From Candidatus Bathyarchaeia archaeon (GTDB taxonomy: Archaea; Thermoproteota; Bathyarchaeia; Bathyarchaeales; Bathycorpusculaceae): a DNA stretch of 11,317 bases. The position numbers were made by a program, and so were the translations under genes. Below the pieces are notes generated by a model that was not told the origin of the DNA, ran no database searches, and saw only the letters and a list, made by a program, of their open reading frames with translations. The stretch is taken from positions 1 through 11,317 of the forward strand of contig JBMFOB010000029.1 in NCBI GenBank assembly GCA_049969855.1, written 5' to 3'. Position 1 is the stretch's first letter. Each line of letters starts with the position of its first letter. Below are positions 2 to 11,316 of the stretch, one piece after another.

Positions 2-223
2 TGTGCGATTCAGAATATTTTGTTGGCTGCAACAGCAGAAGGTTTAGGAAGCTGCATATACACATTCTACAACATAGAAGAAGAGCGACAGATAAAACAA
101 ATCTTGGAAGTGCCAGAAAATTACCGAATTGCAACTATAATTCAGTTAGGATATTCAGTAACGGAACCACCAAAACCATCAAGAAAAGCGCTCAAAGAAA
201 TAGTATCATACCAACACTTCTAA
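2..223 (+). CDS. Nitroreductase-family (FMN-dependent) protein, C-terminal part; 5' end lies outside the window
   Basis: The frame is open from base 2 and reads CAIQNILLAATAEGLGSC...ILEVPENYRIATIIQLGY...RKALKEIV. This matches the nitroreductase xQNxxLAAxxxGLGSC motif and the typical GY...RK C-terminus. Stop TAA at 221-223. Confidence 0.9.
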   Translation, partial: CAIQNILLAATAEGLGSCIYTFYNIEEERQIKQILEVPENYRIATIIQLGYSVTEPPKPSRKALKEIVSYQHF

Positions 224-374: not shown

Positions 375-887
375 TTATCCACCTATTTTCGCTCTTATCC
401 GTGGAACAATTTCTTTCCGTATCTGTGTTATGCCAAATGTTGTAACCTTGTATTTGTCTTCGGCAATTTTTGCAACCATGTTGCTTTTGACAAGTTCGCC
501 TAATCGTGTGCTGGTAATTTTTCCACTCTTGCCCAACTTTGCTTGTAACTCTTCTTTAGAAACTGCTTCACTTCCAACCAAGCCCAACTGAAAACCAATA
601 TAATTGGCTAAAAGCCACAACAATAGAGTTTCATTATCCGTAAGCTTATCCTTAGAAACAAGCAAATTAGCACCTTCCTTAGAAAAGGCAATCAAACCCT
701 CACATTCTTTGACAAGCCCCTGCAAATCCACGCTAAGCACAAGCCTCTTTGCAATATCAAAGGAAGGAAGAAACTCGCCGAAAAACTTGTTTAAGCCAAG
801 CCAAACCTCTTCTGGGGCGCCACTAAATGTTTTTTCAACATCCCCAAACTTAACTTGAACCGTAATCTTATCCATTTCACCACTCAA
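375..887 (-). CDS. Hypothetical protein with a predicted C-terminal winged helix-turn-helix (trio member 3)
   Basis: 170-aa ORF. The TTG start overlaps the upstream stop (TTGA) and has GGAG 9 nt upstream; an alternative ATG is at 875. The C-terminus SKEELQAKLGKSGKITSTRLGELVKSNMVAKIAEDKYKVTTFG has a wHTH pattern (HTH, then a beta wing ending Y-x-V-T-x-x-G). Confidence 0.8.
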   Translation of the reverse strand: MSGEMDKITVQVKFGDVEKTFSGAPEEVWLGLNKFFGEFLPSFDIAKRLVLSVDLQGLVKECEGLIAFSKEGANLLVSKDKLTDNETLLLWLLANYIGFQLGLVGSEAVSKEELQAKLGKSGKITSTRLGELVKSNMVAKIAEDKYKVTTFGITQIRKEIVPRIRAKIGG

Positions 888-1354
888 GCCATCTTACTCC
901 TAAGCCTACTCAAAACCTCATCTTCAACCCATCTTTCGCCCTGAATAGTCAACTTAAACTCTGGCTTAGCCGGGTCTGGCTTAAACACTTGACCGCGCTT
1001 AGTCATCTCATTCAAGCGTGCGGGAACCATACATTTTATTCCGCTGGACTCCAGAAGCTTCTGTATCTGCGAAGCCGTATTCTTACGTTCATCAGAGGCG
1101 TATAAAACCAAACCTATGGCTTCATAATGCGTAAGATTCTCACGGGTTACCACAACAGGACCTTCAGTGGTGAATTCCACTATACCCTTAAGCTGAGCTG
1201 TTGAAGGAACAAGCCTGCTTGAAACAGCATTTGAAATCTTCTCCATGAAATTCTCTGGAAAATTCTCCAACATGCTGAGGATTTCCTGCGGATTTTCGCC
1301 CTCAACTATAATTTCGCCGAAAGGAGTTTTAATGCGGGCTTTAACCTTCTTCAT
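884..1354 (-). CDS. Hypothetical protein with a predicted C-terminal winged helix (trio member 2); paralog of 375..887
   Basis: ATG at 1354 has GAGGAG 9 nt upstream; the alternative TTG at 1375 overlaps the upstream stop. The C-terminus TASQIQKLL...VPARLNEMTKRGQVFKPDPAKPEFKLTIQGERWV is a wHTH pattern. Confidence 0.8.
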   Translation of the reverse strand: MKKVKARIKTPFGEIIVEGENPQEILSMLENFPENFMEKISNAVSSRLVPSTAQLKGIVEFTTEGPVVVTRENLTHYEAIGLVLYASDERKNTASQIQKLLESSGIKCMVPARLNEMTKRGQVFKPDPAKPEFKLTIQGERWVEDEVLSRLRSKMA

Positions 1355-1371
1355 TCCACGTTTCTCCTCTT

Positions 1372-1863
1372 TCAAGTTATGGCTTCCTTTTCTGCGAGGA
1401 TATAAACGTAACCAGCATCAGTCTTCCAATGCCTAACCAAACCCTTCTTAACAAGCCCCATCAAAACCCTCGCTACGCTGCTTCCAGGATAAGAAAGCCC
1501 ATTAGCCTTTAACGCTTCTTTCAACTCCTCAACCGTTCGCGGACGCCACTTCCCCCAATCTGTTTCAAGAATCCGCAAAATAGCCTCATCACACTTTTCA
1601 GTTTGCTGAATTTTCGGATACTTCTGCATTAACGCTTCTTCCTTTACACCTTCAGCCGCCGCCTTCACCGTCAGCGTCGCCACAGTCTTAGGCTTCAAAC
1701 CCTCAAAAGCCCTATGCAAGTTAGCAGCCAAACCAGGCAAATCCTCAATAGTCTTTAAAACTTCGTCTCGGGTTCCGCAAATTTCAACCTCATACTCGCC
1801 GGTTCTCAAACGGAAAACAAAATTTCTGGGCATATCTCCAACCCTTTTATCCTTCACTTTCAT
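1372..1863 (-). CDS. Hypothetical protein with a predicted C-terminal winged helix (trio member 1)
   Basis: 163-aa ORF with an alternative ATG at 1833. The C-terminus EAILRIL...RPRTVEELKEAL...SSVARVLMGLVKKGLVRHWKTDAGYVY fits a wHTH (LxxLVKKGLV followed by a wing). Confidence 0.8.
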   Translation of the reverse strand: MKVKDKRVGDMPRNFVFRLRTGEYEVEICGTRDEVLKTIEDLPGLAANLHRAFEGLKPKTVATLTVKAAAEGVKEEALMQKYPKIQQTEKCDEAILRILETDWGKWRPRTVEELKEALKANGLSYPGSSVARVLMGLVKKGLVRHWKTDAGYVYILAEKEAIT

Positions 1864-1995
1864 CCCCTACTATAGAAAGTGTCCTGTGCTTTTAGAATTT
1901 ACGGGTTTTGATATATTTCGGAAAAGGAAATATAATATTAAATATTAAGATACACTATTAGTTTATGCGTAACAAACATAACCAGAGGAATCCCC
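1864..1995. promoter_or_regulatory. Divergent promoter region
   Basis: 132-bp AT-rich spacer between head-to-head genes. It has a minus-strand TATA-like AAATTCTAAAAG (1889-1900) about 30 nt before ATG 1863, plus-strand AT-rich boxes at 1931-1950, and an SD-like GAGGA at 1985-1989 before TTG 1996. Confidence 0.5.
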
Positions 1996-2622
1996 TTGTC
2001 TAAAAAGGGAATAACCGTATGGCTTTTCAGTTCCCTAACCTTCATAGCCCTCATACACTTAATCGAAGCAGTCTCAGTTCTAATCTTCAACAATGAAATC
2101 CGCCTTCTTCAAATATATCCATTCATAGGCGAAAAACTGCAAACCATAACCCCACTAACATATTTTATAGCAAGCGCTACAGCAACCCTTGTCTTTTGGG
2201 GGATAACATGTGCAGCCGCCTTCACAAACCCAGTGGAAACATTCCTAAACAAAATCCTCTCGGATGCCAAAAAACAAAGTTCCGTAGAAACTCAAATGTT
2301 AGAAGACAAAAGCGAAATTCTCGATGTCATGAACGAAACAATTGAGTCAAACAATGAAATCCTCGCTCAAGTTAGAGACATGATATACAATGTAAGAACT
2401 GAGGTTAAAGAGATCCAACCATTAAAAGAGGGAATAGAAAAAATGAAAACAGAAATAAGCGTTTTAAGGAAGGAAGTTAAAAGGCTGGAAGAAAAAGTTC
2501 ACTTTTCGAACCTTTGCCCTGCATGTGGAAAACCATTACTACCAGAGTTCAAAATCTGTCCATATTGTGGCGAAAACATAAAACTTCTGCCAGAAAAGGT
2601 TGTTGCAATTAAAGAATACTGA
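1996..2622 (+). CDS. Membrane protein with two N-terminal TM segments, a coiled coil and a C-terminal C4 zinc ribbon
   Basis: Hydrophobic stretches ITVWLFSSLTFIALIHLIEAVSVLIF and LTYFIASATATLVFWGITCAAAF; a heptad-like E/K-rich region (IEKMKTEISVLRKEVKRLEEKV); CPAC-x10-CPYC. TTG start with a GAGGA SD. Confidence 0.85.
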   Translation: MSKKGITVWLFSSLTFIALIHLIEAVSVLIFNNEIRLLQIYPFIGEKLQTITPLTYFIASATATLVFWGITCAAAFTNPVETFLNKILSDAKKQSSVETQMLEDKSEILDVMNETIESNNEILAQVRDMIYNVRTEVKEIQPLKEGIEKMKTEISVLRKEVKRLEEKVHFSNLCPACGKPLLPEFKICPYCGENIKLLPEKVVAIKEY

Positions 2623-2780: not shown

Positions 2781-2793
2781 GGTGAAAAATAAA

Positions 2794-4632
2794 ATGGAAA
2801 GAATTGAAATTGCAATAGTTGTTTTAGTGTTGATAGGCATTATAGTTTCAAGCAGCACCATGTACTACACAACTACTGTAATAAACAATGTATCTACATT
2901 GTCTGGAGATATGTCTAAATTGACAGAGAACGTGTTAAACCTTACATCTAATGTGAGAGACCTGGCAACTATAACTGGAACCCTAGCCGAAGCCATGGGC
3001 GAATTCACCCAAACACTAGCCGACTTGGAGACGAGACTGGCGGCAATAGAAGCAACTCTGGCAGCAAAAGCAAAAGAGACGCTAATCGTTGGAACAACGG
3101 ATTCTGTTGAGAACACACTTGATCCTGCTCAAGCGTACGATTATTTCGGATGGTGTATACTGCAACAAATAAGCGGCACACTAGTCAGCGTTAAGCCCAA
3201 TTCAACGACTGGATCTGATTTTCTCCCAGAGTTGGCTGAAAGCTGGAATTTCAGTGATGATCTGATGGTTTGGGACTTTAACTTGAGGCAAAACGTAAAG
3301 TTTCCGGATGGAACGATATTTAATGCTACGCATGTTAAGTATACTTTTGACAGAGCCATAGCGCTCATACCTAGCATTCCAGAAGGAGCGCCAGCTGGTT
3401 TAGGCTACGACGCTATTTTTAATCGAACAGAAGTTCTTGACACATACAAAGTGAGGTTTTATCTGAACTTCCCATTCAGTCCGCTGTTAGGAATTCTAGC
3501 TTGCAGAGCCTCAGCCATTGTAGATCCATCCTATGCTCCGTTGGAACAAATAAACTATACCGCTGGGGATGCGCGTGCAAGCACGCCAGTAGCCTTTGTT
3601 GGTCCATATTACCTGTCAAAGTGGGAGCGTGTTGGTGACAGGGACATTGAGATAAGATTAGACAAGAATCCATACTACTGGAATGCAACAAGCGGTTATC
3701 CGAAGACAAAGACTATAATATTTAGGTTTTACAGGGACGCATCGACACTTAGGTTAGCAATAGAAGCAGGCGACGTAGACATGGCGTTTAGGCACATATC
3801 ACCTACAGATGTTCTTGACCTTGAAAACAATCCAAACCTTAAGGTTTGGTGGGGCACCGGCGCATTCATTCAATACATGTGCTTCCAAGAAGCGCATCCA
3901 CCATTCAACGATAGTAGAGTGAGAAGGGCCATTGCTGCAGCATTAAACAGGTCAGCTGTTTGCGAGACCGTCTTCCTAGGTCTATCGAAGCCCTTGTATA
4001 GCATAATACCTCCTGGCATGTTGGGACATACTGAGGCGTTTAAGGAGCTTGGAGACGCAAACTATTCGCTCACAAGAAGCCTCCTTGCTGAACTGGGCTA
4101 CAATGAGACTAATAAGCTAACATTTGATTTGTGGTATGAATCTTCAGGGCATTATCCAATGAGTGCCGAACAAGCTCTTCTTTACAAAGAAGCCTTAGAA
4201 GCCAGCGGTGTCATGTCGGTGACGCTGAAATCTGCAGACTGGTCCAGCTACAGACAAAACAGAAACCAAGAGATAATGGATGTCTACGTGTACGGTTGGT
4301 ATCCTGATTACGTTGATCCAGACGATTATTCGTTCCTATACTGGGCTGCATGGCTTCACACAAACTACTATAACGAAACCATCAACGGTGTACCCAATCC
4401 CTCTTACAGTGCTTATTTGCAGCAAGCCGCCCTATACGATCAAGCCCGTGCAACAACCAACCTAACGCTTAGAGAAGAGCTTTATGCACAAATAGATTCA
4501 ATTGCCGTAGAACAATGCTCAATTGTTCCACTTTATGTGAGCAGCGCTTGGGCTGTGACAAAACCAACGATCGAGGGAATCTACTTAGACATAACGCAAG
4601 ACATGCGTTACTGGCTAATATACTTCAAGTAG
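2794..4632 (+). CDS. dppA: ABC transporter substrate-binding protein, family 5 (DppA/OppA/NikA-like), with N-terminal membrane anchor
   Basis: Motifs LIVGTTDSVENTLDPAQAYD, PELAESW...FNLRQNVKFPDGTIFNATHVKYTFDR, PFNDSRVRRAIAAALNR and GWYPDYVDPDDY. ATG 2794 is preferred over GTG 2782 because AGGTGA lies 8 nt upstream. The symbol is a family-level label; the substrate is unknown. Confidence 0.92.
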   Translation: MERIEIAIVVLVLIGIIVSSSTMYYTTTVINNVSTLSGDMSKLTENVLNLTSNVRDLATITGTLAEAMGEFTQTLADLETRLAAIEATLAAKAKETLIVGTTDSVENTLDPAQAYDYFGWCILQQISGTLVSVKPNSTTGSDFLPELAESWNFSDDLMVWDFNLRQNVKFPDGTIFNATHVKYTFDRAIALIPSIPEGAPAGLGYDAIFNRTEVLDTYKVRFYLNFPFSPLLGILACRASAIVDPSYAPLEQINYTAGDARASTPVAFVGPYYLSKWERVGDRDIEIRLDKNPYYWNATSGYPKTKTIIFRFYRDASTLRLAIEAGDVDMAFRHISPTDVLDLENNPNLKVWWGTGAFIQYMCFQEAHPPFNDSRVRRAIAAALNRSAVCETVFLGLSKPLYSIIPPGMLGHTEAFKELGDANYSLTRSLLAELGYNETNKLTFDLWYESSGHYPMSAEQALLYKEALEASGVMSVTLKSADWSSYRQNRNQEIMDVYVYGWYPDYVDPDDYSFLYWAAWLHTNYYNETINGVPNPSYSAYLQQAALYDQARATTNLTLREELYAQIDSIAVEQCSIVPLYVSSAWAVTKPTIEGIYLDITQDMRYWLIYFK

Positions 4633-4633
4633 C

Positions 4634-4666
4634 AATAAGCTTATTTCCGCCCCTCCTATTTTTCTT
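4634..4666 (+). terminator. Post-SBP element: 12-bp palindrome plus pyrimidine/T tract, possible partial terminator or mRNA end
   Basis: AATAAGCTTATT (4634-4645, self-complementary) is followed by TCCGCCCCTCCTATTTTTCTT directly after the SBP stop. Confidence 0.4.
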
Positions 4667-4705
4667 ATAAAATTGGAGCCATAACTAAGATTAGGGTGTA
4701 AGTTT

Positions 4706-5968
4706 ATGGGTTTACGTACATACGTCCTCACTAGAATATTGTTAACGATACCTACACTACTATTGCTTCTCTCATTGGTTTTCTTAGTCATGCGAGTTCT
4801 GCCCGGCGATCCGGCAGATCTTCATTTTGAAAAGAAAGCCACACCAGAACAATTAGCTGAAATGAGACAAAAATTGGGAATGGATAAGCCGTTATGGCAG
4901 CAATACATCGATTACCTCTGGGGAATAGTCGACATTGGATATTTAATGGAGCATGGGTATCCTAACTTAGGCAAGTCTATGCAAAATTATGAGGAAGTTG
5001 GAGGACAGATTTTTTCAGCTTTCCCAGCGACACTTGAACTGGCTATTTACTCAATGATAATAGCGTCTATTATTGGAGTGCTTCTCGGAGTAGTTTCATC
5101 CAAATCGTACAATTCTGTACTGGATCATTTACTAAGAGGTTTCGGAACAGTTACGTATGCAATTCCAGTTTTCTTTCTAGGGATAGTTCTTCAGTTGATT
5201 TTTGCAGTTTATCTTCATTGGCTTCCAACAGGTCTTCGACTTCATCCCGAAGTTTCTCCTCCCGTAGGTTTAATCATACCTTTGAACCCGTCTTCAACAG
5301 ATTTCTTTCACAATTTCTTATTATCATCCATTGCTGGAGTAGTCTGCGCCGCCTCATGCATTGCATTAATGAAAATGAAGCGTGTAAAATTCAAGTTTAA
5401 AGGAATTATCATTTCTATTGCAGTGTTCTTTGTTTGCTGGATTGCCTACGCATATTTGTCATGGTATTTTATATGTTTGGGACGATTTCAAATAACCACG
5501 GGCTTATATACGATTGACAGCCTTCTGGAAGGAAACCTCTACAAGTTTTTCGAATCTTGTAAGGCTCTTCTGCTGCCTTCTCTCACTCTTGGAATTATTC
5601 TCTCCGGCGTATTTTTAAGATTAACAAGAACTAACATGCTTGAAACTTTAAGACTTGATTTTGTAACTGCTGCTAGGGCAAGAGGTTTAAGTGAAACCAC
5701 AGTGACTTATGGTTACGCCTTGAGGAACGCTTTTCTGCCAATACTCACAATGATGGGGTTGCAGTTCGCCATGCTCCTAGGCGGAGCGATCCTTACCGAA
5801 ACCACTTTTTCATGGCCTGGGCTTGGAACGTACATAGTTTCCAGAATCAATTATAGGGATTATACAGCCATCCAAGGCGCAGTAGTAATGTTCGGCTTGT
5901 TTGTTGCAATAGTAAGCCTGGTTGTGGACATTTTGTACGCATACCTTGACCCAAGAATAAGACTGTAG
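4706..5968 (+). CDS. dppB: Peptide/nickel ABC transporter permease, DppB/OppB type, with an internal insertion
   Basis: N-terminal YVLTRILLTIPTL...LPGDPA...LGMDKPLWQQY, FPATLELA, EAA loop DFVTAARARGL, ETTFSWPGLG and C-terminal YAYLDPRIR. GGGTG SD at 4694-4698. Confidence 0.95.
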   Translation: MGLRTYVLTRILLTIPTLLLLLSLVFLVMRVLPGDPADLHFEKKATPEQLAEMRQKLGMDKPLWQQYIDYLWGIVDIGYLMEHGYPNLGKSMQNYEEVGGQIFSAFPATLELAIYSMIIASIIGVLLGVVSSKSYNSVLDHLLRGFGTVTYAIPVFFLGIVLQLIFAVYLHWLPTGLRLHPEVSPPVGLIIPLNPSSTDFFHNFLLSSIAGVVCAASCIALMKMKRVKFKFKGIIISIAVFFVCWIAYAYLSWYFICLGRFQITTGLYTIDSLLEGNLYKFFESCKALLLPSLTLGIILSGVFLRLTRTNMLETLRLDFVTAARARGLSETTVTYGYALRNAFLPILTMMGLQFAMLLGGAILTETTFSWPGLGTYIVSRINYRDYTAIQGAVVMFGLFVAIVSLVVDILYAYLDPRIRL

Positions 5969-5979
5969 GAGAAATAGAA

Positions 5980-6864
5980 ATGACCGAACCAAAAATCAAG
6001 CGAATTTTTCCCATCCATTTAATATCCAGCTTCACTTCATTAACTAAAAGGGGGTCCTCAGGGTGGATGGTTGTTCTTGGCTCCATAATCGTTTCAGCAT
6101 TAGTCATAATGACAGCGATTGGGCCATGGGTTGCGCCTTACAGCCCAACTAAATATGGCGTTGGTCCAATAAGATCGCCTCCAAGTCTCCAGTATCTAAT
6201 GGGCACAAACCACATAGGCCAAGACATGTTCAGCAGAATTCTGGTCGGAGGATCACTGATGTTACAAATTTCGGCTCTTTCCGTTCTTATTTGTTTTGTC
6301 ATAGGTGTACCTTTAAGTCTTTTCTCCTCTTACATAGGCGGTTTTTTTGATAGCGTTGTTTCGCTGGTAATAGATGCTATTTACGCTTTTCCCGGTTTAG
6401 TCATAGCTATCGCTATAGCAGCCATGCTGGGTCCAGGAGTAATTAACATGGCTCTTTCAATTGCAGTCGTTTATATCCCATCATACTTCAGAATTGTTCG
6501 AAGCCAAGTTTTAAGTATAAAAGAGTTAACCTATGTAGAAGCAGCCAAAGCAGCTGGCGCAAAATGGCACACAATCCTATATCGTTACATCTTTCCTAAT
6601 GTTATTCCCTCAATAGTTGTGGTAGCTACAATAAACTTTGCAGACGCCGTTCTAACTGCCGCAGGCTTAACATTCATAGGATTAGGAGTAACATATGATA
6701 TACCTGACTGGGGATGGGACCTAACAAATGGAAAAGCTTATCTTGCAAGTGGGGCATGGTGGATCATCTTTTTCCCCGGTCTCATGATAGTTCTTCTCGC
6801 ACTTGGTTTCACACTCATAGGGGAAGGCCTAAGCGAACTAATAAACCCAAAGCTTCAACGTTGA
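5980..6864 (+). CDS. dppC: Peptide/nickel ABC transporter permease, DppC/OppC type
   Basis: PPS...MGTNHIGQDMFSRILVG, EAA loop YVEAAKAAGA, LTFIGLG...PDWG, WWIIFFPG and GEGL. AGGAG SD overlaps the dppB stop. Confidence 0.95.
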   Translation: MTEPKIKRIFPIHLISSFTSLTKRGSSGWMVVLGSIIVSALVIMTAIGPWVAPYSPTKYGVGPIRSPPSLQYLMGTNHIGQDMFSRILVGGSLMLQISALSVLICFVIGVPLSLFSSYIGGFFDSVVSLVIDAIYAFPGLVIAIAIAAMLGPGVINMALSIAVVYIPSYFRIVRSQVLSIKELTYVEAAKAAGAKWHTILYRYIFPNVIPSIVVVATINFADAVLTAAGLTFIGLGVTYDIPDWGWDLTNGKAYLASGAWWIIFFPGLMIVLLALGFTLIGEGLSELINPKLQR

Positions 6865-6874
6865 GGTGACACAT

Positions 6875-7849
6875 TTGCCCTTACTAGAAGTTAATTCGTT
6901 GGCTGTTGAGTACCGAACCAGCAGAGGAACCGTCCGTGCCGTTGAGGATGTCTCCTTCTCCATGGAAAAAGGCGAAACGCTGGGATTAGCCGGCGAATCT
7001 GGTTCAGGAAAATCCACACTTGGACTTTCCATAATTCGCCTTGTTCCCTACCCAGGCATCATAGCCAAAGGCAGCATAAAAATAGAAGGAAAAGAAATTT
7101 TGAAACTACGAGAAAACGAGATGCGCCTCTTAAGAGGCAAGAAAGTGGCTTACATTTTCCAAGACCCCATGATTTCCTTGAATCCGGTTAAAAAAATAGG
7201 CGACCATTTCACTGAGTTAATACATACGCATGAGCCCAAGACAAAAAAGGAAGAGGCAATTGAACGCGCCAAAGACTTGCTAAAAAATTTGGGAATATTA
7301 CCTGAACGTATAAACGATTATCCCCACCAGTTCAGCGGCGGAATGAGACAACGCATAATGATAGGCTTAGCAATCGCTTTAAATCCAGCCTTAGTAATAG
7401 CTGATGAACCCACCACAGCCTTAGATGTCATAGTTCAAGCAAAAATACTGGACTTACTTGAAGATCTACGCAAAGTGTATGGAATGGCACTTATTTTAAT
7501 TTCACACGACTTAAGCATACTATTAGAGAGATGCGACAAAATCATTGTCATGTACGCAGGACACATGATGGAATATGCGAACAGCACAGAACTTTATAAG
7601 AACCCTAAGCATCCATACACTCAAGGGCTACTTCAAAGCATCCCCAACATAGAATTAGAAGACCAAAAACTGTCAGCAATTCCAGGCTCACCCCCAGACA
7701 TGCATAACCCACCAAAAGGCTGCCGCTTCTGGCCACGCTGCTCCTACGCCACAGAAAATTGTCATTTAAAAGAACCTCCTCTAATTGATGTTGGAAATGG
7801 CCATTTTGTGCGATGCTTCTTATATGGCGAGAAAGGTGCACAACAGTGA
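6875..7849 (+). CDS. dppD: Peptide ABC transporter ATP-binding protein, DppD/OppD type
   Basis: Walker A GESGSGKST, signature FSGGMRQR, Walker B VIADEPTTALD, HPYT and a C-terminal Cys cluster. TTG 6875 is preferred over GTG 6866 because GAGGTGA (6863-6869) lies 5 nt upstream. Confidence 0.95.
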   Translation: MPLLEVNSLAVEYRTSRGTVRAVEDVSFSMEKGETLGLAGESGSGKSTLGLSIIRLVPYPGIIAKGSIKIEGKEILKLRENEMRLLRGKKVAYIFQDPMISLNPVKKIGDHFTELIHTHEPKTKKEEAIERAKDLLKNLGILPERINDYPHQFSGGMRQRIMIGLAIALNPALVIADEPTTALDVIVQAKILDLLEDLRKVYGMALILISHDLSILLERCDKIIVMYAGHMMEYANSTELYKNPKHPYTQGLLQSIPNIELEDQKLSAIPGSPPDMHNPPKGCRFWPRCSYATENCHLKEPPLIDVGNGHFVRCFLYGEKGAQQ

Positions 7850-8826
7850 GTGAAATTGTAAAAGTTGAACATTTAAAAAAATATTTTCCAGTTCAGAAAA
7901 GTTTTCTCGAACAACTTTTTACGAGAAAGCTCAGCTACGTTAAAGCTGTTGATGACGTAACCTTCTCAATAAAAAGGGGAGAAATCTTCACTCTCGCTGG
8001 AGAAAGTGGTTGTGGAAAAACAACAACTGGGAGACTCATCTTGAAACTTGCTACACCCACATCGGGCAAAATCTACTTTGAAGGCGTCGACGTAACAAAC
8101 CTTAAAGGCGAAAAGCTTCGACTCATTAGAAGAAGAATGCAGATGATTTTCCAAGACCCTTATGCATCGCTTAACCCGCGGATGAAAATAGGCGATGCGG
8201 TTGGTCATCCGCTTGAAATCCATGGTCTAGCCAAGGGAGAGGAGAAAAAGAAAATGGTTTTGGAGGTGCTTGAGAAGGTTGGTTTAACCCCTCCAGACCA
8301 ATTTGTTAATTTGTATCCGCATCAACTTAGTGGTGGCCAAAGGCAACGAGTCGCTTTGGCAAGATCTATCATTTTAAAGCCAGAGTTCATTGTTGCCGAT
8401 GAACCTGTTTCCATGATTGATGTTTCTCTCAGAACAACAATTATTGATTTAATGCTAAATTTCAGAAAAGAGTTAGGGTTAACTTACTTATTCATAACTC
8501 ATGACTTAGCGGTTGCAAAATACATTTCCGATATGATTGCCATAATGTATCTCGGAAAAATAATAGAAATGAGCAGTAAAGAACGTCTCTTTTTGAAACC
8601 TCTCCACCCCTACACACAATCTTTGCTGTCAGCCATCCCCGTTCCAAACCCGAAGAGGAAAAGAAAAATTTTAGAGCTTAAGGGAGAAGTTCCCTCTGCA
8701 ATTAATATTCCCTCTGGCTGCAGATTTCATCCACGCTGTCCATATGAAAAACTGGAATGCGCAAAAAAGGAGCCAGAGTTGGTGGAGGTTGAAAAGGGTC
8801 ATTTTGTAGCTTGCAGCTTCCTTTAG
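7846..8826 (+). CDS. dppF: Peptide ABC transporter ATP-binding protein, DppF/OppF type
   Basis: Walker A GESGCGKTT, FQDPYASLNPR, LSGGQRQR, IVADEP, HPYT and CRFHPRC. GTG 7846 overlaps the dppD stop (GTGA) and has an AGGTG SD at 7834-7838. Confidence 0.95.
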   Translation: MSEIVKVEHLKKYFPVQKSFLEQLFTRKLSYVKAVDDVTFSIKRGEIFTLAGESGCGKTTTGRLILKLATPTSGKIYFEGVDVTNLKGEKLRLIRRRMQMIFQDPYASLNPRMKIGDAVGHPLEIHGLAKGEEKKKMVLEVLEKVGLTPPDQFVNLYPHQLSGGQRQRVALARSIILKPEFIVADEPVSMIDVSLRTTIIDLMLNFRKELGLTYLFITHDLAVAKYISDMIAIMYLGKIIEMSSKERLFLKPLHPYTQSLLSAIPVPNPKRKRKILELKGEVPSAINIPSGCRFHPRCPYEKLECAKKEPELVEVEKGHFVACSFL

Positions 8827-10730
8827 TGCTTTGTTATTTGTTCTAGTTTCTTTTTTAGTATTTCGCTGACTAGTGTGGCGTTTGCTTTGCCTCTAACTTC
8901 TCTCATGATTATGCCGAGGATTATTCCGTGAGCTTTTTCCTTTTGTTCCTTAATTAAGTTTTTATTGGCTTCTATTGTGGCGTCTATGATTTTTTCAATT
9001 TCCTCTTTTGTGAGCATTTTTAAGCCAATATTGTTTATGGCTTCTTGTATTGTTTTGTCTTCGTGTTTGGAAAGCCAGCTGATGATTTCTTGTATTGTCT
9101 CTTTTGTTATTTCTCCGGAGCTTAGTTTTTTGAAGATTTCTCTCATTTGATTTTCTGAGATTTTTTCTGTTTGGATTCCTTCACGTTTTAATGCCTTCAG
9201 GGTTTCTGTTAAAAATGCTGCCACTGTTGTTGGTGAGACTCCGCTTTCTTTTACTATGGTTTCGAATGTTTCGCTGTATTCTGAATCCAGTATTTGTTTT
9301 GCTAATTTTTGGTTTAGTTTGTAGTTTTCTATTAGGCGTTTGAGTTTTTGTTCTGGAAGTTCTGGAAGATTAGCGCTAATTTTCTCCAGCATTTCTTTTG
9401 TTATTTGTGTTGGTGGGATGTCTGTTTCTGGGTACATGCGGGCTGCTCCTGGGCGTGGGCGCATGTAGCGTGTTGTGGCGTCTGGGTTTGCGGCGCGGGT
9501 TTCTTCTGGTACGCCTTTTAGGGTTTCTTTTGCTCTTTCTAAAACAGCTTTTAATGCGTCTTTTGCGTTTTCTGGAGCGTCTGCAACGAAGACTATTGCG
9601 TCTTCTTCGCTTGCCCTTACCGCCTTTTTTAGTTCTTCAATTTCTTCTGCGGTTATTCCGTAGGCTGGCATTTCGTCTGTGTGGAAGATTCCGCCTACGC
9701 GTCCCCAGAATTTTGCGTGGTCTGCCATTTCTGTTCCTAGGCGAAGGTTTGGTATAAGCTCTCTTTTGAGGAAACCCTTGAATTTTGGTAGTTTTAGTGC
9801 GAATACTTTTTGGTTTTTGTTTAGGGCTTTTTGGATGACTTTGCATTTTGTTTGTTTGAAAACTTCTGTTACGTCGTAATATTCTTCTTTTAGTTCTTCT
9901 TCTTTTGCGCCTGTCGCTTTTAGTTCTTGGGTTATTTTTGTTAGGTTTAGTTGGCGTTGGACTTCGTATTCTACAACCAGCGGTAATAGTTCTAGTTCTT
10001 GGACGCCCTTTATTTCTGTTAGGGCTCCGTTTGGGATGGATATGTTTAGGTCTTGGCGTATTGTTCCTAATCCGCGTTTGACTTTTCCTGTTGCCCTTAG
10101 GATTTTTCCTATTGCGAGTGCGACTTCTCCTGCTTCTTTTGGGGCGTTTATGACCGGGGCTGTGGCTATTTCTATTAGTGGTATGCCCAGTCTGTCTATG
10201 CGGTAGCGTATTATGTTGTTTTCTTCTTCGCCCATTTTTCGGGCTGCGTCTTCTTCTAGGCTTATGTGTTGGATGGGAATGGTTTTTTCGCCGATTTTTA
10301 TTTTTCCGTTTAGGGCTATGACGCATGTTCGTTGGAAGCCTGTTGTGTTTGAGCCGTCTATTACTGTTTTGCGCATTACGTGGATTTCTTCGACGGGTTT
10401 TGCGTTTAGCATTAGAGCCACTGTTAGGGCTATTTCTACGGCTTCCATGTTTAGCGGGTGGGGTGGTTCTTCGTCCATTTCTACGAGGCATGATGTTTGG
10501 CTGTTTGCCTCATAGAGGATTTTTGTTCCTTTTTGGAATTCGAAGTATGCTGCTGGGTCTATTTGGCCTAGTTCGCCTTGGGTTGGGCGTAATCTGCGTA
10601 TAAAAGTGATTTCTGGTTCTTCTTTGAATAGTTCTGGTTTGCATTGGCAGAAAAGTTTAGCCTTTGTGTCTAGTTGTTGGTGGATTTCTAAGCCTACTTT
10701 TAATCCGAGTTTTTCGTAGTTAATTTGCAT
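8823..10730 (-). CDS. gatE: Glu-tRNA(Gln) amidotransferase subunit E
   Basis: GLKVGLEIHQQL...KLFC, MRKTVIDGSNTTGFQRT, LEEDAARK, DRLGIPLIEIAT, RGLGTIRQDLNISI, the AspRS-like insertion (GGIFHTDEMPAYGI), RPRPGAARMYPETD and a YqeY-like tail GIIMREVRGKA; 635 aa. Confidence 0.98.
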   Translation of the reverse strand: MQINYEKLGLKVGLEIHQQLDTKAKLFCQCKPELFKEEPEITFIRRLRPTQGELGQIDPAAYFEFQKGTKILYEANSQTSCLVEMDEEPPHPLNMEAVEIALTVALMLNAKPVEEIHVMRKTVIDGSNTTGFQRTCVIALNGKIKIGEKTIPIQHISLEEDAARKMGEEENNIIRYRIDRLGIPLIEIATAPVINAPKEAGEVALAIGKILRATGKVKRGLGTIRQDLNISIPNGALTEIKGVQELELLPLVVEYEVQRQLNLTKITQELKATGAKEEELKEEYYDVTEVFKQTKCKVIQKALNKNQKVFALKLPKFKGFLKRELIPNLRLGTEMADHAKFWGRVGGIFHTDEMPAYGITAEEIEELKKAVRASEEDAIVFVADAPENAKDALKAVLERAKETLKGVPEETRAANPDATTRYMRPRPGAARMYPETDIPPTQITKEMLEKISANLPELPEQKLKRLIENYKLNQKLAKQILDSEYSETFETIVKESGVSPTTVAAFLTETLKALKREGIQTEKISENQMREIFKKLSSGEITKETIQEIISWLSKHEDKTIQEAINNIGLKMLTKEEIEKIIDATIEANKNLIKEQKEKAHGIILGIIMREVRGKANATLVSEILKKKLEQITKH

Positions 10731-11316
10731 TGGTTTTCGCCTCTTCTGGTGTTGTTCTTGGCGTTATTTCGCCTGCTATGTTTGTTTTTAGCATTTGTTT
10801 TGCTTCTTCTGGGTTTTGGGTTTGGGCGAGGGTCCACATGAGTTTTACTAGGGCTGTTTCTGGCAGCATATCCTCAAGCGGGATTACGCCTAATGCGAGT
10901 AGGTCGCGTCCTGTGTCGTATACGTTCATGTTTACCCTTCCCCATATGCATTGGGATGTCATGGCGATTATGATGTTGTTGTCTATTGCTTTTTTTATGG
11001 CGTTGAAGCAGTAGTTGCCTATATGCCCTAAGCCTGTTCCTTCTAGGATTATTCCTTTGTAGCCGTTTTCCATGTGCCATTCTATTATGGCGGGGTTCAT
11101 GTTTGGGTAAAACTTTATTAGGGCTGCTTTTTCGTTGAATTGGGGTTTCAGCGTGAGCGTTCTTTTTTTGTCTCTTGGCGTGTAATTGTCTGTTAGCATT
11201 GTTATTTTTTGGTCTTGTACGCGGGCGATGGGCTGGGCATTTATGCTTCTGAAGGCGTCGCGTCTGCTTGTGTGGCATTTGCGGACTTTTGTTCCGCGGT
11301 GTATTGCGATTGTTGT
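10720..11316 (-). CDS. gatD: Glu-tRNA(Gln) amidotransferase subunit D, C-terminal part; 5' end lies outside the window
   Basis: The frame stays open to the window edge (TTIAIHRGTKVRKCHTSRRDAFRSIN...), then reads GIILEGTGLGH, MTSQCIWGRVNMNVYDTGRDLL and DMLPETALVKLMW. These are asparaginase-like GatD motifs. It overlaps the gatE start by 11 nt. Confidence 0.97.
   Translation of the reverse strand, partial: TTIAIHRGTKVRKCHTSRRDAFRSINAQPIARVQDQKITMLTDNYTPRDKKRTLTLKPQFNEKAALIKFYPNMNPAIIEWHMENGYKGIILEGTGLGHIGNYCFNAIKKAIDNNIIIAMTSQCIWGRVNMNVYDTGRDLLALGVIPLEDMLPETALVKLMWTLAQTQNPEEAKQMLKTNIAGEITPRTTPEEAKTNAN

Follow-up and report, generated by a model that had tools for sequence, protein, structure and literature searches.

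An Unnamed Family of Predicted Winged-Helix Paralogs Linked to NurA-HerA in Bathyarchaeia

The Locus

The window, i.e., the whole stretch of 11,317 nucleotides analysed here (contig JBMFOB010000029.1 of assembly GCA_049969855.1), stems from a Candidatus Bathyarchaeia archaeon. It contains three small co-oriented genes, here called A, B and C. An earlier note, made from the sequence alone, had described them as an operon of three winged-helix proteins, and an ORF check found the three frames and the quoted peptides where that note had placed them (longest frames of 163, 163 and 170 aa, all on the minus strand). The features are the following.

1372..1863, minus strand: gene A, 163 aa; Fur/BlaI-like winged helix behind a beta-beta-alpha-alpha module and a disordered linker
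884..1354, minus strand: gene B, 156 aa if started at ATG 1354; the longest frame begins at 1375 (ORF 884-1375)
375..887, minus strand: gene C, 170 aa if started at TTG 887, 166 aa if at ATG 875
1886..1905, minus strand: conserved element upstream of A, core CGTAAATTCTAAAAG
1905..1924, no strand: imperfect palindrome centred on ATATAT, in the spacer that separates the operon from the divergent gene
1996..2622, plus strand: divergent neighbour with two hydrophobic segments, a coiled coil and a C-terminal zinc ribbon
8823..11199, minus strand: gatE and the 3' part of gatD

The winged helix of A carries a conserved W-G-x-x-x-P-R-T motif. In B, the beta-beta-alpha-alpha module is followed by a helix plus beta-hairpin and a PadR/MarR-like winged helix, and C is built like B according to profile comparison. 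The start of C overlaps the stop of B. A TTGA overlap had been noted at both junctions. It is indeed there between the longest frames, but the one between A and B is not conserved: the A-B gap ranges from -14 to +24 across 28 loci. B most likely starts at ATG 1354, 17 nt past the stop of A, since the resulting 156 aa are the length of most homologues. The B-C junction, in contrast, is a 4-nt overlap in 22 of 28 loci; for this count the start of C was placed manually at the overlapping TTG in four loci, one of them that of the window.

The surroundings differ in constancy. The gatDE genes are a conserved chromosomal anchor, gatE being present in 17 of 40 class-wide loci. The zinc-ribbon gene is divergent from A in about half of the family's loci and shares the intergenic palindrome; it is a neighbour conserved within the family only and probably lies outside the module. 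Further along (2782-8826, plus strand) there is a peptide ABC transporter operon. Its peptide-binding protein has an N-terminal membrane anchor and a coiled coil, and its first permease (420 aa) looks longer than usual because of an inserted hydrophobic stretch. At the other end (20-223, plus strand), the contig start truncates a nitroreductase gene, whose remaining 3' part is convergent with C; a congener has a different gene there.

Paralogy and Fold

Sequence comparisons confirm that A, B and C are paralogs and that their shared architecture reflects homology. In single-sequence BLASTP, B matches C (E 4e-8), while A matches neither of them. Profile comparisons connect all three: 95.8% for A-B, 99.7% for B-C and 82.6% for A-C. 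The N-terminal modules, aligned with hhalign, reach 84-97%; taken alone, the three pairs score 46.7, 39.2 and 25.6, whereas 30 column shuffles of each never exceeded 15.6, 17.1 and 14.1, respectively. The likeness of these modules, which the earlier note had pointed out, is thus one of homology by profile and not a matter of unrelated folds. In a tree of 114 members the A-like, B-like and C-like groups are apart, and C splits into two types.

The AlphaFold model of B (pLDDT 90.3) consists of two strands, two helices, a linker of low confidence and a winged helix. That of A (pLDDT 79.5, linker below 50) has the same sequence of a beta-beta-alpha-alpha module, linker and winged helix. An extra helix and beta-hairpin ahead of the winged helix are present in B and C and absent from A. 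Three helices followed by a beta-hairpin wing, which define the winged helix-turn-helix superfamily, are seen in the models of A and B, with VIA matches at Z of about 10; C is placed there through its profile identity with B. On this basis the C-terminal winged helix that had been proposed for all three is well supported in A and B and probable in C.

Beyond the superfamily the searches yield little. Whole-model structure searches with A and B are filled by generic winged helices with tied Z scores of 9-11. Foldseek gave no match at E 0.001 for either model, and PDB sequence searches gave nothing below E 0.04. In the ESM Atlas, B finds unnamed Bathyarchaeota clusters and one Nitrososphaerota cluster at 0.83; residues 1-55 of C find no usable named match there. 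The N-terminal module may resemble the beta-beta-alpha oligomerisation modules of Lsr2 or ZapA.

Comparison with Known Families

For A, B and C of the window, no model of Pfam, NCBIfam or PADLOC exceeds its cut-off, and alignment members give scattered weak helix-turn-helix matches. The trio thus still lacks a named family, as had been stated before. A reaches 20.9 bits with Penicillinase_R (BlaI/MecI, PF03965), versus a cut-off of 22.6, and covers profile positions 13-63 of 115 only; 11 of 44 members match at E 0.01. BlaI and MecI have an N-terminal winged helix and a C-terminal dimerisation domain, whereas the winged helix of A is C-terminal, with nothing beyond it. Among regulators of the PadR/MarR/ArsR type, the B model matches QsrR, F93 and MftR (Z 10.3-10.8, rmsd 2.0-3.0 over 79-83 residues); among those of the Fur/BlaI type, the A model matches Fur (Z 10.3, rmsd 1.8 over 68). 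In all these comparisons only the C-terminal half aligns, and the extra domain of the trio is N-terminal, not C-terminal.

Other small archaeal winged-helix proteins are pNOB8 AspA, which matches the B model at Z 9.3, and Sso10a and Lrs14/Sul12a, which give weak profile matches in 1-2 of 67 C members (E 0.003-0.008). The Sso10a, Lrs14 and Sul12a models of NCBIfam do not match B or C of the window; for A, Sta1 appears at E 0.16. In Sso10a, Lrs14/Sul12a and AspA the winged helix comes first, and dimerisation is achieved through the C-terminal part. The domain order of the trio is the reverse, and the trio is tied to a nuclease-motor pair (see below).

Such likenesses permit a chromatin role: the paralogs could be nucleoid proteins of the Sso10a, Lrs14 or Lsr2 kind, abundant and binding DNA largely irrespective of its sequence. 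Their N-terminal module would then polymerise or bridge DNA, and the link to nurA-herA would merely be old gene order. Bridging nucleoid proteins consist of an oligomerisation module, a flexible linker and a DNA-binding head, which is also the layout of the trio. The three proteins are small and, in this genome, basic (pI 8.7-8.9), and the structural matches that tie include Sso10a, AspA and linker histone H1/H5. These matches are, however, generic, with many ties around Z 10, and over their whole families B and C have a median pI of just 6.8-6.9. The conserved palindromes suggest sequence-specific binding instead, and A/D and C have been lost together with NurA-HerA twice. For the family as a whole we regard a chromatin role as improbable; for B alone it may apply.

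An ESCRT-II-like tandem winged-helix arrangement was considered and discarded: the models of A and B have one winged helix per chain, and Vps4 or ESCRT-III are not among the recurring neighbours. In PADLOC, A, B, C, D (the fourth paralog, see below) and NurA match 0 defence families, and HerA matches generic ones only. Near-universal occurrence and a fixed site beside gatDE speak for a core locus rather than a defence system. A description of the paralog family was not found in full-text searches of the literature, including the accessible parts of 10.1101/2024.02.06.579148, PMC7554672, PMC5797428 and PMC13748450; arCOG-level tables in supplements or subscription papers may list the genes.

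Distribution and Gene Order

B is the best-conserved of the paralogs, and its named homologues belong to Candidatus Bathyarchaeia. B is matched in 53 of 61 relatives and, at E 0.001 and including weak cross-matches to its paralogs, in 128 of 151 genomes of the class; that it is so widespread and outlives the other members would suit a nucleoid protein. The B profile finds 293 clusters at 50% identity. The C profile has strong matches (E <1e-24) in about a dozen families of other classes and weak ones elsewhere, 301 genomes of the phylum having been sampled.

The order A-B-C is kept in 26 of the 30 best (close) loci, so the conserved synteny that the earlier note had looked to is there; A is missing in two of the 30 and C in two. 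Across the class the membership varies: B; A-B; B-C; A-B-C; B-C1-C2; B-C1-C2-A. This variability speaks against a fixed complex. A fixed A-B-C heterotrimer is unlikely, and the heteromer with three different heads, as it had been envisaged, does not fit. In two families an unannotated gene of 230-244 aa lies on the opposite strand within the paralog cluster (L032:4146-4877, L033, L034, L065); it has no Pfam match.

Variable membership and order would also be expected if the paralogs were independent homodimeric regulators, born of tandem duplications and still adjacent, that form no mixed complex. The loci without A or C, and nine genomes in which B is alone, fit this idea. It does not sit well, however, with the stop/start overlap of B and C that most loci keep, with paralog classes that are old and lie side by side across classes, or with the N-terminal module being the part best conserved between A and B/C. 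We give such independence a small chance.

Association with NurA-HerA

The archaeal HerA-NurA end-resection system is known from an operon of herA, nurA, mre11 and rad50, and the main text of a 2026 review on NurA contains neither 'winged' nor 'Bathy' (PMC13748450).

In the class-wide survey, the paralog family lies beside nurA-herA in 25 of 40 loci, with two NurA-HerA types, and in 18 of 20 loci of other classes, the latter chosen by C score. The genome studied here has one HerA (PF01935) and one NurA (PF09376, 21.1 bits, just above the cut-off) by family search, both on contig C18. The linked pair shows what characterises canonical HerA-NurA, i.e., adjacent genes and catalytic motifs: Walker A/B of HerA and the acidic and His motifs of NurA are kept, with counts of 29, 33 and 38 of 55 under strict patterns. 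It differs from the canonical herA-nurA-mre11-rad50 set in being accompanied by 2-4 winged-helix paralogs. The one-operon layout is not seen either: the pair is followed by unrelated genes on C18, and Mre11 is on contig C10. In several other lineages Mre11 adjoins nurA-herA.

Next to this only nurA-herA pair lies the fourth paralog:

C18:2 to about 356, minus strand: gene D, divergent from nurA-herA; cut by the contig end

Its closest paralog is A (99.9% in profile comparison), and D faces away from nurA in 20 of 20 loci (L073-L092) picked for herA near the cluster. In a congener (G002) the order is herA-nurA|D, a pepF-like gene, C-B-A, the zinc-ribbon gene and the peptide-binding protein, and herA-nurA|D is 4 kb away from B. 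The 593-aa gene between D and C-B-A we take to be an oligoendopeptidase F. It was not found in the present assembly, and the ends of contigs C18 and C29 do not overlap. Among 49 relatives holding both genes, B is less than 10 kb from herA in 20, further away on the same contig in 7 and on a different contig in 22. The decisive context, D and nurA-herA on another contig, was outside the window and hence invisible to the earlier note.

The linkage could be physical. The paralogs might be partners of HerA-NurA that form a heteromeric adaptor on DNA ends or special structures and load or license the nuclease-motor, partly replacing Mre11-Rad50. In many lineages B-C1-C2-A-nurA-herA is a single co-oriented run with touching or overlapping ends, and 3 to 7 winged-helix genes per locus are many for one promoter. 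A scan of 14 long B-profile matches revealed the hairpin and winged-helix half of B/C as a portable C-terminal domain (P0152, P0155, P0161, P0190, P0202, P0210). It is fused to a HerA-like ATPase (P0152) and to AAA ATPases (P0190, P0210), but also to AbiTii, CAP12-type TIR and kinase proteins. Since the domain is portable, the HerA fusion says little in favour of an adaptor. Moreover, five genomes of other Thermoproteota families have NurA and, at most, weak C matches, and C accompanies two HerA types that are only about 22% alike. The co-loss described below, in which Mre11 stays, fits an adaptor well. All in all, we consider it a plausible but rather doubtful option.

Control Elements

The element at 1886..1905 is matched in 24 of 27 upstream regions of relatives; it probably combines the BRE of the operon with a non-canonical TATA box and would then be the basal promoter. 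In a genome that lacks A (G180), the element stands directly before B. A close copy precedes an MFS gene of the same genome as the window (G000:C13:20121-20140, minus strand; score 21.5 versus 23.3). The palindrome at 1905..1924 is a possible operator; it occurs in 9 of the 27 upstream regions, chiefly in those flanked by the zinc-ribbon gene.

A different palindrome, TTGTGCA-N9-TGCACAA, lies between D and nurA behind a TATA box and is found in 20 of 21 D upstream regions. In this genome it is unique (score 37.0, the next other site 18.5). In other classes weak versions are the best D-nurA site in 8 of 20 loci, with scores of 3-15 that do not rise above background. Genome-wide profiles of this palindrome and of the one at 1905..1924 yielded no convincing second site and no regulon. 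The D/nurA palindrome is absent from the window, and the trio is convergent with D and outside the nurA-herA transcript. Nothing therefore ties A, B and C directly to that operator.

Operon-leading B-type genes of other lineages are preceded by arrays of (A/T)ACGT(A/T): 50 sites in 44 regions, 22 of which have at least one, versus 12.5 sites in shuffles (maximum 22 in 200 shuffles). The motif was chosen after inspection of the regions and does not form an array in the window.

Co-Loss with NurA-HerA and Retention of B

At thresholds of E 1e-25 for C and E 1e-60 for this HerA type, 77 of 151 genomes have both, 9 have HerA only, 7 have C only and 58 have neither; all 7 with C only hold another HerA-family gene. 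The table overstates the association, since 39 of the 58 'neither' genomes belong to two related families; the independent losses are two. In the four inspected loci of these families, A-B is accompanied by the other NurA-HerA type and by five small winged-helix genes. In L037 (3282-4696) and L038-L040, the five stand-alone genes are situated between A-B and the second NurA-HerA type, in families without C.

The two losses are instructive. In genus g17 (90-99% complete), 7 of 8 genomes are without this HerA and without C and A/D matches; the same holds for 2 of 4 genomes of genus g48, one of them closed and 97% complete. The A/D profile does find D in G183. NurA was not found in the six co-loss genomes tested out of nine, and Mre11 is present in five of five tested. 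Other PF01935 ATPases are still encoded in the two g48 genomes. All nine have B, with identities of 69-77% (g17) and 54-59% (g48); in sister genomes where the system persists, the values are 79% and 64%.

Since adjacent genes can go in one deletion, the co-loss partly reflects position. B, however, sits between A and C, and its survival required separate deletions on both sides. A/D, C and this HerA are all gone, whereas B and Mre11 persist. On this evidence A, C and D appear to serve NurA-HerA specifically, and B seems to have a role of its own, independent of the pair. High-quality Bathyarchaeia genomes with Mre11 and without detectable NurA are those of L068 (G180) and L031 (G052). The assumption that family f37 lacks NurA turned out to be wrong; NurA is present.

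Proposed Role

We favour the view that A, B, C and D, an unnamed family of predicted winged-helix proteins, form mixed DNA-binding oligomers for the dedicated transcriptional control of the lineage's NurA-HerA. We put its probability at roughly 0.4, above that of a loading adaptor, of chromatin proteins and of independent regulators. That two kinds of paralogs were lost with NurA-HerA and a third was kept makes a control module likelier than general chromosome packing. Among the options of the earlier note, the combinatorial regulatory complex is the best match. Were the role one in the nucleoid at large or in partitioning, the loss of A/D and C with NurA-HerA would be unexplained.

The mechanism might be as follows. 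The two-strand hairpin and helices of the N-terminal module can hardly bury their hydrophobic face alone, which suggests that the modules pair, and they would do so into mixed oligomers. B and C, probably coupled in translation, would be the core pair, and A and D the sequence-specific heads. D would act as a repressor at the D/nurA palindrome. B could also work alone as a homo-oligomer, which would explain why it survives the losses. Two facts disagree with transcriptional control as the common function: a single operator in the genome would give four proteins very little to regulate, and nine genomes keep this HerA without C.

To our knowledge, HerA-NurA has been regarded as a minimal machine with Mre11-Rad50 as its sole requirement. 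A bolder combination can be imagined: a mix-and-match winged-helix heteromer as Mre11-Rad50-independent loader of HerA-NurA in Bathyarchaeia and related Thermoproteota, built on B, which would double as a stand-alone chromatin or global DNA-binding protein. This is conceivable but unlikely. If loading were the true function, an undescribed accessory layer of archaeal end resection would emerge. Be it control or loading, a missing layer of this kind is suggested by an unnamed family that accompanies HerA-NurA, and disappears with it, across an abundant uncultured class and in other families of Thermoproteota. The natural losses map the subunits that would depend on the machine (A, C, D) and the one that would not (B). 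As the parts are small and a candidate operator is defined, binding and reconstitution are directly approachable. In L059 (2-3236), one HerA is flanked by two NurA types beside a four-paralog cluster.
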